A stretch of DNA of 64,000 bases, taken from positions 28,333 through 92,332 of the forward strand of contig CAMBFC010000002.1 of assembly GCA_945865905.1 (NCBI GenBank), in the 5' to 3' direction. Of this stretch, positions 14,673 to 47,927 are shown piece by piece. Positions within the stretch are counted from its first letter, which is position 1, and each line of letters begins with the position of its first letter. Below the pieces are notes generated by a model. The model had not been told where the DNA came from, ran no database searches, and was given only the letters and a program-made list of their open reading frames with translations. The position numbers and the translations under genes are program-made. Origin of the DNA: Rickettsia typhi. GTDB taxonomy: Bacteria; Pseudomonadota; Alphaproteobacteria; Rickettsiales; UBA1997.

Positions 14673-14731
14673 AAAAAACCTGCTTATTTTGCGTGAACCT
14701 TATGGGATTTGCAAAAATAAGCAGGTTTTTT
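14673..14731. terminator. bidirectional intrinsic terminator between convergent rne and the ABC ATPase gene
   Basis: A6-AACCTGCTTATTTTGC-(loop)-GCAAAAATAAGCAGGTT-T7. The stem is about 16 bp with one bulged A, flanked by an A-tract and a T-tract, so it should work in both directions. Confidence 0.7.
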
Positions 14732-16351: not shown

Positions 16352-16439
16352 AAATTGTTGAATTTTGATTTTATTTAATCATAGACTTTACAAGTCAGCT
16401 CTTAATTTAAAATCTATAATTCAAAATTTCTACATTTTC

Positions 16440-17213
16440 ATGAAAAAAATTCCATTATCGGTCTTTATTATTACCAAAAATGAGGCAGATCGCCTTTTGG
16501 CAGTGATTGAAGCAGTAAAACAAATTGCCGATGAAATTATCGTGATTGATTCTGGCAGCACTGATAAAACCTGCGAAATAGCCACTAATGCTGGCGCTAA
16601 GGTAATTTTTAATCAATGGAGTGGTTATGGCCAGCAGAAAATTTTTGGCGAAAATCAATGTCGCAATAAATGGATTTTAAACATTGATGCTGATGAAGAA
16701 GTCTCTCCAGAGTTGGCTTTGGAGCTTGCAAAACTTTTTCAAAACAATCTTCATCAAAAATTCCATGGCTTTCGCGTTAAAATTGTTAATAAATTTCGTG
16801 GCGAAAAAAAACCCCATCGCTTCGCTTATTATTACAATCAATTAAGGCTCTACAACCGCGATTTTGGTGGCTTTAAGAATAGCGCTATTCATGATTCAGT
16901 TGAAATGAAAGGCTCAGCGCAAATTGGGCAACTAAAAAACATCATCTATCACCAATCCTTCCGCTCTTTTGAACATTGGATCGAGAAGATAAATTCTTAC
17001 TCATCAATGCAGGCAAAAGATAGCTTCGCAAAAGGCAAAAAACCATCCATATTAAAAATGATCTTCGCGCCAATTTTAGCTTTTTTTAAAGCGTATTTTG
17101 TGCGTAGATATTTTATTTATGGCTTCAAGGGAATAGGCTACAGCCTTCTATTCGCCTTCTCCCGCTTCGCCAAAGCAGTTAAAACACGCGAACTATTTCA
17201 AAATAAACTTTAA
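16440..17213 (+). CDS. family 2 glycosyltransferase
   Basis: Start moved to the ATG at 16440. LSVFIITKNEADRL...IIVIDSGSTDKT...NIDADE (GT2 DxD-type motifs). Confidence 0.8.
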   Translation: MKKIPLSVFIITKNEADRLLAVIEAVKQIADEIIVIDSGSTDKTCEIATNAGAKVIFNQWSGYGQQKIFGENQCRNKWILNIDADEEVSPELALELAKLFQNNLHQKFHGFRVKIVNKFRGEKKPHRFAYYYNQLRLYNRDFGGFKNSAIHDSVEMKGSAQIGQLKNIIYHQSFRSFEHWIEKINSYSSMQAKDSFAKGKKPSILKMIFAPILAFFKAYFVRRYFIYGFKGIGYSLLFAFSRFAKAVKTRELFQNKL

Positions 17214-17222
17214 AAATAATCA

Positions 17223-17377
17223 ATTCAAAATGAGAGATTGGGTGGCGGGCGACGCTCCTCTGAATCGAGTTTTGATGGTCTACTAACAATGCAAAAGTTT
17301 AACCAAGATCGCAACTAGACCATCACTGTCTGAGAGGCAGAGGAGCGTCGCCCGCCACCCAATCTCTCATTTTGAAT
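17223..17377. repeat. foldback element A: perfect 40-bp inverted arms plus a 75-nt interior with a conserved core
   Basis: 17223-17262 is the exact reverse complement of 17338-17377 (40/40, checked base by base). Inner 10-bp stem 17273-17282/17316-17325. Core blocks CTCTGAATCGAGTTTTG (17258-17274) and TGTCTGAGAGGCAGAG (17327-17342) recur in element B. Confidence 0.85.
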
Positions 17378-18434
17378 CACCTATTAACAAAGAAGCATCA
17401 CCATAAGAATAAAATCTATATCGCTCAGAAACCGCATGACTGTAAATCTCTCTCGCCCTCTCCTTCCCCACAAAAGCAGAAACCAACATAAATAAAGTAG
17501 ATTTTGGCAAATGAAAATTGGTCATCAAAATATCTACAACCTTAAACCTGTAAGGTGGATAGATGAAAATGCTAGTTTTGGTTTTTGCTTCACGCAAAAT
17601 TCCATCCATATCAGCAACCGATTCCAAAACTCGTAATGATGTCGTTCCAACCGCAACCACCCTGCCTCCAGCCGCTCTAACATCATTAATAGTTTTTGCA
17701 GTTTCCGATGAAATCGAAAAAGATTCTTCATGCATATTATGATCTTGCAATCGCTCCGACCTAACAGGCATAAAGGTTCCTGCCCCAACATTTAATGTTA
17801 CAAAAACTTTTTTTATTTTTTTTGTCTCAAGCATTGCAAAAATTTTATCAGTAAAATGTAGCCCAGCCGTTGGCGCCGCAACCCCCGCACCATCGCGCGC
17901 ATAAATTGTTTGGTAATTTTTTTGATCATCTTCCGCAAATTTTGCATCTCTTTTTATGTAGGGAGGAAGTGGTACGGAGCCATATTTATCAAGCTTCTCA
18001 AGATAATCATCATCACTAAATTCAAGCTCTGCAAAACCATCTTCTAATTTTTTTACAATGCGCGCAAAAAAATCTGGCGCAATTTCTAATAGATCTCCAT
18101 CCTTGATTTTCTTGGATCCCCTTACTATCACCCGCCAAATATTTTTAGCAATTTCTTGATCAAGATTAAAATCAATAATTTTATCATTGCCATTCGCATT
18201 AGATCCTGCAAGGCTCTGCATAATTCGCGCCGACATTTTTGCTTTAATAACTCGCACATCATTAAAAACCAGCACATCGCCCTCTTGCAAAAAATCAATC
18301 AAATTGATAAGCTTGCGATCCAATATTTTGGCGCCATCATAAACCAACATTTTGGTTTCTTCCTTAGGAGAAAAAGGCTGTTGCGCAATTAAGTTTTGCG
18401 GCAAAATAAAATCAAACTCAGATAATAAAGACAT
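17367..18434 (-). CDS. queA: S-adenosylmethionine:tRNA ribosyltransferase-isomerase
   Basis: MSLLSEFDFILPQNLIAQQP N-terminus, GAGVAAPTAGLHFT, VGTTSLRVLES, FYSYGDA C-terminus. Confidence 0.9.
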   Translation of the reverse strand: MSLLSEFDFILPQNLIAQQPFSPKEETKMLVYDGAKILDRKLINLIDFLQEGDVLVFNDVRVIKAKMSARIMQSLAGSNANGNDKIIDFNLDQEIAKNIWRVIVRGSKKIKDGDLLEIAPDFFARIVKKLEDGFAELEFSDDDYLEKLDKYGSVPLPPYIKRDAKFAEDDQKNYQTIYARDGAGVAAPTAGLHFTDKIFAMLETKKIKKVFVTLNVGAGTFMPVRSERLQDHNMHEESFSISSETAKTINDVRAAGGRVVAVGTTSLRVLESVADMDGILREAKTKTSIFIYPPYRFKVVDILMTNFHLPKSTLFMLVSAFVGKERAREIYSHAVSERYRFYSYGDASLLIGDSK

Positions 18435-28607: not shown

Positions 28608-28659
28608 TTTATAAGTGATTTCATTTATATAAATAATTTATATAAATTTGTTATATGAT

Positions 28660-29403
28660 TTATATCATCAACATTCCGCCATTAACATGCAGCGTTTGAC
28701 CAGTGATATAACTCGCATCGTCACTCGCTAAAAATGCCACAGCGGCAGCAATTTCTTTAGGTTCACCCATTTTTTGCATTGGGATCGAACCGAGAATTCC
28801 TTGCTTTTGCGTATCATTCAAAATATCAGTCATTGCTGTTTGAATAAAGCCCGGAGCCACACAATTAATAGTGATTCCGCGAGTTGCAACTTCTGCAGCA
28901 AAAGATTTGCTCATGCCGATCATCCCAGCTTTTGAGGCAACATAATTGGCCTGCCCCGGATTGCCCGTAACGCCAACAACTGAGGCGATATTAATGATTC
29001 TGCCAGCTTTGCGACGAATCATTTTTTTAATTGCCGCACGATTTAACATAAAAGTTGATTTTAGATTTATATCCAAAACATGATCCCAATCTTCATTTTT
29101 CATTCTTAAAGCAAGATTGTCTTTGGTGATTCCTGCGTTACAAACTAAAATATCAACAACGCCGCCGGCAAGCTCTTCTGCGCTATCAAATAAAGCTTCT
29201 ACTTGCGCAATATCAGATAAATTGCAGGCTAATATTTTGCATTTATCTTCACCAATTTTTGTCGCTAATTCTTTAAGACGATCTTCTTTGGTGCCTGATA
29301 AAATAAGTTTAGCGCCTTGTTTGGCAAGGCTTTCAGCGATTGCTGCACCAATTCCACCAGTTGCGCCAGTAACTAAAGCTGTTTTTCCTGTAAGTCTGAA
29401 CAT
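28660..29403 (-). CDS. fabG: 3-oxoacyl-[ACP] reductase
   Basis: TGATGGIG, NAGIT, YVASKAG (SDR catalytic YxxxK); 247 aa. Confidence 0.9.
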   Translation of the reverse strand: MFRLTGKTALVTGATGGIGAAIAESLAKQGAKLILSGTKEDRLKELATKIGEDKCKILACNLSDIAQVEALFDSAEELAGGVVDILVCNAGITKDNLALRMKNEDWDHVLDINLKSTFMLNRAAIKKMIRRKAGRIINIASVVGVTGNPGQANYVASKAGMIGMSKSFAAEVATRGITINCVAPGFIQTAMTDILNDTQKQGILGSIPMQKMGEPKEIAAAVAFLASDDASYITGQTLHVNGGMLMI

Positions 29404-47516: not shown

Positions 47517-47927
47517 CAAAATTTTAATTTTTTCTGCGATTTTTTTTGGCTTAAAACTTTCAACATCAACACTTACAATCTCAACCTTTAAGCGCGCTAA
47601 CACAACTTTGTTTTTTTGCATTTCTTGCCTCATTACAATTGAAGCGGCGTTAATTTCTTCTGCCACGACCGTAACTTCTACCAAATCATCCAAACGCGCT
47701 GGCCTTAGATAATCAAGCTCGCAACGCCGCACCACAAAAGCAGTTTTTTCTTTTTCGATTAGTTCATGCTGCGAGATTTCTAGATTGCGCAAAAAATCTG
47801 TGCGGGCGCGTTCAAAAAATTTTAGGTAATTTGCGTAATACATTACGCCACCAGCATCGGTATCTTCATAGTAAACACGGTATTGCGCGAAGAAATTTGC
47901 TGCTGATTTTTTGCTTAGATTATTCAT
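47511..47927 (-). CDS. ybgC: YbgC/4HBT-family acyl-CoA thioesterase
   Basis: YRVYYEDTDAGGVMYYANYLKFFERARTDFLR (hotdog-fold catalytic Asp motif); 138 aa. Confidence 0.85.
   Translation of the reverse strand: MNNLSKKSAANFFAQYRVYYEDTDAGGVMYYANYLKFFERARTDFLRNLEISQHELIEKEKTAFVVRRCELDYLRPARLDDLVEVTVVAEEINAASIVMRQEMQKNKVVLARLKVEIVSVDVESFKPKKIAEKIKILL

Follow-up and report, generated by a model that had tools for sequence, protein, structure and literature searches.

MITE-like repeats of bacteria are small, multi-copy, hairpin-forming sequences that are polymorphic between close relatives and often lie at gene ends (review PMC10969869). Among them, the Rickettsia palindromic elements are found in-frame inside ORFs and encode conserved peptides (PMC10969869). 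In REPINs, the replicating unit is a hairpin-forming doublet in which pairing is preserved, and a folded single-stranded DNA stage has been proposed for it (PMC3116915). Finally, template switching during replication is an established one-step source and means of repair of perfect stems, and of multi-base compensatory change (PMC8794818, PMC7202029).

The stretch of DNA analysed here, hereafter called the window, is 64,000 nucleotides long and carries two long hairpins, A and B. We consider it reasonably probable that they are copies of a dispersed, non-autonomous family of foldback insertions with a core that is recognised in folded DNA. We show that this family is multi-copy and insertion-polymorphic, and that its conserved core is under constraint when folded. 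We also show that its arms covary without wobble bias, that outer arm sequence was copied from the flank, and that cores and arms have been shuffled with respect to each other. Element A and its site comprise the following features, in window positions.

17223 to 17377, no strand assigned: foldback element A, 40-nt perfect arms and 75-nt interior, from arm pairing and fold
17223 to 17239, plus strand: outer left arm of A, which repeats the native 3′ end of queA in inverted form, without counterpart in the empty site (window against L014/L015)
17240 to 17360, plus strand: the element proper, made up of the core and GC-rich arms of 23 nt (GGGTGGCGGGCGACGCTCCTCTG and its complement), missing in relatives 90%, ~82% and ~80% identical in DNA
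17258 to 17274, plus strand: 5′ conserved block of A, CTCTG-AAT-CGAG-TTTTG
17273 to 17282, plus strand: 5′ strand of the P2 helix of A, pairing with 17316-17325
17283 to 17315, plus strand: apical region of A, which varies among type-1 copies
17316 to 17325, plus strand: 3′ strand of the P2 helix of A
17327 to 17342, plus strand: 3′ conserved block of A, TGTCTGAG-A-GG-CAGAG
17361 to 17377, minus strand: outer right arm of A, native queA 3′ end (codons ..DSK and stop at 17367-17369), also in the empty site
17218 to 17221, plus strand: AATC, possible 4-nt target duplication, repeated at 17361-17364, a single case
16365 to 17213, plus strand: family-2 glycosyltransferase (GT2) gene, convergent on A
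17367 to 18434, minus strand: queA, convergent on A

The anatomy of A agrees closely with the original prediction. Its arms (17223-17262 and 17338-17377) are exact reverse complements, paired 40/40, and the 75-nt interior holds a second stem, the perfect 10-bp P2 (17273-17282/17316-17325). The folding energy of the element is -99.8 kcal/mol, with z = -13.9 against dinucleotide shuffles. As had been noted, the left arm begins at the 10th base after the GT2 stop (17211-17213), and the right arm supplies the last codons of queA and its stop (17367-17369, TCA on the plus strand). The arms had also been described as G+C-rich, which is true of their inner 23 nt (78% GC) and not of their outer 17 nt (24% GC); an AT-rich outer arm portion is also present in other long-armed copies.

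The comparison of GT2/queA junctions in relatives, proposed with the original prediction, dates the arrival of A. Using QueA homologues to reach syntenic contigs (L012-L015, L020-L023), we found A present in L012/L013, which share 97.3% DNA identity with the window, and the junction empty in L014/L015 (90%, 23-nt spacer), in L020-22 (~82%, 25-nt spacer) and in L023 (~80%, where the two genes overlap). The entire A hairpin entered the 23-nt gap that separates the stop codons of GT2 and queA, and it did so once the lineage had diverged from the 90%-identical relatives. A look-up of the exact protein sequence encoded by queA in the window returned no record. The empty site of L014 reads ...AAAAATAATC|TCTTATTTTGAATTACC..., and QueA ends in ..GNSK there and in ..GDSK in the window. 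This site reveals that the outer 17 nt of the right arm (17361-17377, AATCTCTCATTTTGAAT) are native queA sequence, and that the outer left arm (17223-17239) is an inverted copy of them. The inserted part, 17240-17360, consists of the 23-nt GC-rich arms and the core, an assignment with which the GC contrast between inner and outer arm agrees, and these 121 nt have no local source in the empty site. The total gain over the empty site is 143 nt, which is not a multiple of 3. AATC stands on both sides of A (17218-17221 and 17361-17364) and may be a 4-nt target duplication, in this single case; none could be resolved at B, at L010 or in the second-family cases described below. Another copy, in L010/L024, is missing in L025/L026 (85-86% relatives), where gene content differs and the boundaries cannot be aligned.

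Element B lies at a second convergent junction, with the following features.

47348 to 47516, no strand assigned: foldback element B (type 2), with one mismatch in its 51-nt arms and an interior of 67 nt; homology to L009/L011 covers ~47355-47509
47394 to 47410, plus strand: 5′ conserved block of B
47411 to 47451, plus strand: inner domain of B, with P2 (47411-47419/47444-47451), P3 hairpin GCGAGC-TAC-GCTCGC (47420-47434) and bulge TTTAAATCA
47455 to 47470, plus strand: 3′ conserved block of B
46764 to 47336, plus strand: rimM, convergent on B
47511 to 47927, minus strand: 4HBT thioesterase gene, convergent on B, with its last Leu codon and stop within the right arm

The arms of B (47348-47398 and 47466-47516) are 98% complementary and enclose 67 nt, so that perfect self-complementarity, which had been claimed for both elements, holds for A (40/40) and falls short by one mismatch in the 51 nt of B. 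The folding energy of B is -122.5 kcal/mol (z = -17.7 against dinucleotide shuffles). Its site is empty in L018/L019, an 83% relative with a RimM 81% identical, since the two stops are only 9 nt apart there. The contig of the 98% relative breaks off 6 nt past the stop of rimM, as a repeat would lead one to expect. Two other loci of the same lake sample, L009 and L011, have cores identical to that of B (67/67). The arms of B are homologous to theirs over ~44 nt and similarity stops beyond, which leaves only the outer 7 nt of B as local sequence. Taken together, the two sites qualify the proposal that the arms are copied from the target: it stands for the outer 17 nt of A, as read from the L014 empty site, whereas an inner portion, from 23 nt in A to ~44 nt in B, travels with the element. 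A 355-aa gene of L009 was considered as queA, which would have made that locus syntenic with A; it is not queA.

A and B belong to a family of 19 loci in total, the 17 others coming from two freshwater "Rickettsiales" MAGs and from lake metagenomes. A degenerate pattern scan, which covered one genome per species, returned 10 copies, nine of them in Rickettsiales bacterium Jr-7aug17-213 (the Jr MAG) and one in Baikal-deep-G64; a scan of metagenomes added three, a fuzzy search of the retrieved loci three more diverged ones, and L012/L013 carry the orthologue of A. Two subtypes can be distinguished. In type 1 (A, L012, L010/L024 and L004), P2 is GATGGTCT/AGACCATC and the apex is variable; type 2 (B, L009, L011 and the Jr MAG copies) combines P2 with a GCRAGC-NNN-GCTYGC hairpin and a bulge rich in A. 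A covariance model built from type 2 only recovers every known copy and reaches type 1 at E about 1e-10, with A itself at 42.7 bits (E=4.5e-10), and has no other match in 219 kb. The original suspicion of a repeated element, in which the core is conserved and the self-complementary arms vary, is therefore correct, and the search by pattern and then by covariance model in related genomes links both types.

We found no copy in viral contigs, no match in plasmid and phage collections, and neither further copies nor core-less arm copies in the window. At the gathering threshold of Rfam the window yields tRNA only; at a permissive threshold the sole addition is a plant miRNA-precursor model, at 32.6 against a threshold of 103 bits, a long-hairpin artefact. 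A literature search on the core motif strings gave no matching paper. The family is a previously undescribed one of small hairpin-forming insertions in freshwater alphaproteobacteria; the host clade is AT-rich and gene-dense, and its MAG records are labelled Rickettsiales. We also observed that the copies of Jr-7aug17-213 are often paired, 45-280 nt apart, head-to-head in L006 (4338-4609), L007 (3997-4482) and L008 (2680-3027) and on the same strand in L001 (1362-1756), and that several contigs of this MAG end within a copy.

The two blocks that had been noticed just inside the arms of A do recur at the equivalent positions of B (17258-17274/17327-17342 and 47394-47410/47455-47470). Each is found without mismatch only at A and B in the 64-kb window, where ~0.35-0.39 chance matches per block are expected even at 3 mismatches. 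In all copies the 5′ strand of the core is (CTCTG)-AA-Y-CGAG-TTNTG and the 3′ strand is TGTCTGAG-R-GG-(CAGAG). The core is asymmetric, and between its strands lies a short helix, P2, whose apex varies. Several substitutions bear on its folded state. The Y-R position is always paired, and every full copy has either T-A or C-G there: it is T-A in type 1 and, by an independent switch, in the type-2 copy L003b, and C-G elsewhere. In L008m, the position next to Y-R has swapped from A·G to G·A, and in L007m the CTCTG/CAGAG clamp has covaried to CCCCA/TAGGG. The pairing at Y-R, the swap and the clamp covariation indicate that the two blocks interact in the folded state. Each block also contains one TCTGAR motif (TCTGAA and TCTGAG, as direct repeats); as a lead from the sequence, the two copies may be arranged in the fold around a pseudo-dyad that has the Y-R pair at its centre. 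The loop was examined as a kink-turn and this was rejected, as it has no 3-nt bulge and only tandem G·A pairs could be proposed; hammerhead and other ribozyme cores were ruled out by sequence and Rfam.

The arms evolve very differently from the core. In the type-2 alignment, 24/29 arm pairs have changed on both sides with 93% of cells still paired, a covariation that none of 500 shuffles reaches (0/500) and that no slid register comes close to. Arm mismatches comprise 9 G·T, 11 A·C and 22 others, without wobble bias. The stem is conserved only as Watson-Crick complementarity. Between B and L009, the arms differ at 22/92 positions and the cores at 0/67 (Fisher p=2e-6). Arms are homologous within a subtype and their similarity decays outward from the core, the outer ends differing between all subtypes and even between copies of one subtype. 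The claim that the arms of A and B are unrelated is correct for that pair and does not extend to members of one subtype, as the ~44 nt shared by B, L009 and L011 show; likewise, arms are not wholly locus-specific, since inner arms are homologous within subtypes and those of the Jr MAG form ordinary arm families.

The phylogenies of arm families and of inner-core variants disagree in the Jr MAG. Between L002 and L008p, the arms are 90% and the cores 74% identical, whereas L006m and L008p have arms that are 50% identical around cores that are 94% identical, and the adjacent inverted copies of L006 have identical cores within unrelated arms. This discordance, together with the identical L006 cores, points to conversion between copies. 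The suggestion that the hairpin is maintained by gene conversion gains support, as pairing is maintained in a conversion-like manner, with massive arm covariation and no wobble bias. The comparison of the window with L012 is also informative. The left arm, 40 nt long, holds a cluster of nine differences against an expectation of ~1 (p about 2e-6), the right arm has one and the 75-nt core four; the cluster is unpolarised, as the left flank of L012 also differs from the outgroup. A single templated event would explain this cluster, and no alternative source of the divergent left arm of L012 was found among the compared sequences. In the region of L012 orthologous to window 17200-17262 (L012 1735-1800), the arm changes are mostly G to A, the adjacent flank also differs, and an indel alters the GT2 C-terminus. 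In the core of L012, CGAG in the conserved block has become CAAG.

Other hairpins were noted in the retrieved contigs. A second family (L010 110-221, L011 1492-1576, L018 303-410, L020 13469-13564, L023 3308-3373 and L025 2707-2810) consists of long, perfect hairpins with 23-47-nt locus-specific AT-rich arms and short GC-rich loops. The loops share motifs (CGCCGAAGC and AGACGGC), most clearly between L018 and the reverse complement of L023, and the architecture, a conserved centre with a variable stem, is that of the A/B family. Two unrelated long hairpins occupy the convergent parA-like/queF junction in L010 (~105-225) and L025 (2700-2815), and in L026 (~1210-1220) the parA-like and queF stop codons overlap (CTAG). 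The junction inserts of L010 and L025 begin with GTAA and end with TTAC, so that each arm supplies a stop codon. When L023 (3285-3400) is set against L020 (2520-2545), the outer 9 nt of the left arm (GTAATTATC) prove to have been copied, in inverted orientation, from the right flank GATAATTAC, which is native and present in the empty site of L020. In the L023 hairpin, too, the stem has grown from the flank, independently of A.

Within the window, the spacer that separates the genes for RNase E and an ABC ATPase holds an ordinary bidirectional terminator-like hairpin (14673-14731), with an 18-bp perfect stem, an A-tract before it and a T-tract after it; L012 and L014 keep this hairpin, and two long perfect hairpins stand in its place in L020. 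The intergenic spacer at 28616-28667 holds an AT-rich imperfect palindrome with overlapping 30-nt arms that are 80% complementary. Finally, genomes that are 85%-related share a highly conserved region immediately upstream of a tRNA gene, made up of a promoter-like TTGACT-17-TATAAT and the ~150 nt that follow it (L010 885-1065, L024 130-310, L025 3690-3860, L026 2100-2270). This region has no Rfam match and may be an unannotated small RNA or leader.

The genomic setting of the copies could suggest a role at the RNA level, in which the hairpin would serve the host as a bidirectional terminator, 3′-end stabiliser or RNase III site with a loop that binds protein on RNA. About 9/14 loci are at gene 3′ ends, all copies are intergenic or overlap stop-proximal codons only, and both window copies lie between convergent genes whose spacers are 9-23 nt in relatives. 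Moreover, at the rne/ABC junction L020 has long hairpins in place of the ordinary bidirectional terminator found in the window lineage, and the pairing covariation of the internal loop also fits an RNA motif with tandem G·A pairs. However, the core is asymmetric and yet its orientation to transcription is mixed: it is antisense in L009, L005 and L011, sense in L004, and L003 and L010 lie between divergent genes. G·U is not in excess over A·C among the mismatches, and strong covariation without G·U bias, combined with mixed orientation, argues for complementarity at the DNA level rather than selection at the RNA level. Promoter and terminator scans at the A and B loci gave nothing above shuffles, and these loci, with stems of 40-51 bp, lack the short GC-rich stem and U-tract of an intrinsic terminator, a function for which a conserved core is in any case unneeded. 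With no Rfam family match either, the structured RNA or RNase III substrate put forward in the original prediction is disfavoured, and we hold a host-useful RNA element to be unlikely. That A and B are no element at all, and that two hairpins made by local template switching share their blocks by chance, deserves hardly any credence. Template switching alone can create perfect stems (PMC8794818), but the combined two-block pattern is expected 0.00 times by chance, 17 further loci carry it, the covariance model links both types, and A brought 121 nt without local source into a formerly empty site; chance similarity is refuted on these grounds, and the concern that no further copies might exist falls with it.

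Another rival to the reading of A and B as foldback insertions is that of a REPIN-like or IS200/IS605-type element, in which the core would be the single-stranded DNA hairpin substrate of an HUH/Y1 (RAYT-like) transposase encoded once elsewhere, the direct TCTGAR motifs on either side of the inner domain would serve as cleavage sites, and the inner core could in this way pass from one hairpin to another. The constraint on the folded state fits this scheme, as do the TCTGAA and TCTGAG repeats, one per block about the pseudo-dyad, the shuffling of inner cores against arms and the identical cores within diverged arms, and a RAYT dimer has been proposed to recognise REPIN hairpin DNA (PMC3116915). 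However, no Y1/HUH gene was seen beside any copy, REPIN arms are conserved where those of the A/B family are variable, whole hairpins and not just cores appear at formerly empty sites, and gene conversion between copies can explain the shuffling. We rate it as somewhat less likely still than the RNA element. More generally, no partner or transposase gene was seen beside the copies: the examined neighbours are all housekeeping genes, such as dnaA, leuS, recQ and pyrD, and the window is syntenic with its relatives throughout.

For the foldback insertion family that we favour, the following mechanism can be proposed. Fold-back template switching during replication would keep the stem perfect and also lengthen it, at the DNA level. 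The core, in folded single-stranded or cruciform DNA, would be a recognition module for a putative trans-acting protein that mobilises or converts the element, although a function at the RNA level, or gene conversion by itself, could also account for the conservation of the core. A hairpin lodged between convergent genes probably blocks transcription in both directions, which would make its persistence in a compact genome understandable. A bolder proposal, which we regard as doubtful, is that of a new class of mobile hairpin, in which nothing but an asymmetric core of ~80 nt is inherited faithfully and exchanged between copies, the stem is re-templated at each locus by fold-back synthesis on adjacent host DNA, landing between convergent stops is precise, and at least two unrelated core families of the clade live in this way. 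Such an element would need no conserved termini and its stem would record insertion sites.

If our reading holds, the usual logic of miniature mobile DNA is reversed, with the centre conserved and the ends free, and these loci provide clean natural cases of template switching building and perfecting stems of 40-60 bp, for which the empty sites serve to polarise the events. This bears on the origin and persistence of long perfect hairpins where genomes are streamlined, and on the acquisition of transcription barriers by convergent genes that have hardly any spacer. The conserved, covarying internal loop is also a concrete handle for finding the interacting protein.

Among known systems, the A/B family resembles MITE-like repeats (Correia/NEMIS, ERIC, RUP, BOX, SPRITE and the Rickettsia palindromic elements) in being 120-180 bp long, non-coding, multi-copy, hairpin-forming, scattered among housekeeping genes and polymorphic in presence between close relatives. 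Conserved terminal inverted repeats and target duplications are what defines MITEs, whereas here the termini are the least and the centre the most conserved part. The predicted inversion of MITE organisation is thus upheld, the outer arm ends being variable and similarity decaying outward, and an ordinary MITE subfamily of many copies with conserved arms does not describe the family. While Rickettsia palindromic elements lie in ORFs, the A/B family is intergenic, and for this reason not RPE-like; the insertion at A does not preserve a reading frame. The inverted copies of adjacent sequence that template switching or quasipalindrome correction leaves as mutation clusters (PMC8794818, PMC7202029) correspond to the pattern at the outer arm of A and at L023. 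As a mutational process, template switching leaves the inserted conserved core unexplained. REPINs and the A/B family are alike in their preserved pairing and in clusters formed by insertion next to existing copies (PMC3116915). In REPINs, however, the arms (REPs) are conserved, the spacer is variable and a RAYT gene is near, whereas the A/B family has variable arms and housekeeping neighbours. The integron attC site is a recombination site conserved as a folded single-stranded structure, with variable length and stem sequence, and the A/B family is like it in that folded structure rather than sequence is conserved. attC sites carry conserved outer R′′/R′ boxes (GTTRRRY) and extrahelical bases and lie in cassette arrays near an integrase, and none of these features was seen for the A/B family; its copies are isolated between housekeeping genes, and their arm ends (ATTCAAAAT.../...ATTTTGAAT and TTATAAAC.../...GTTTATAA) lack the attC boxes (RYYYAAC...GTTRRRY). 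Altogether, we would file the A/B family as bacterial foldback or miniature mobile DNA that departs from both MITEs and REPINs in its unconserved termini and arms and, among the neighbours examined, in having no RAYT gene close by.
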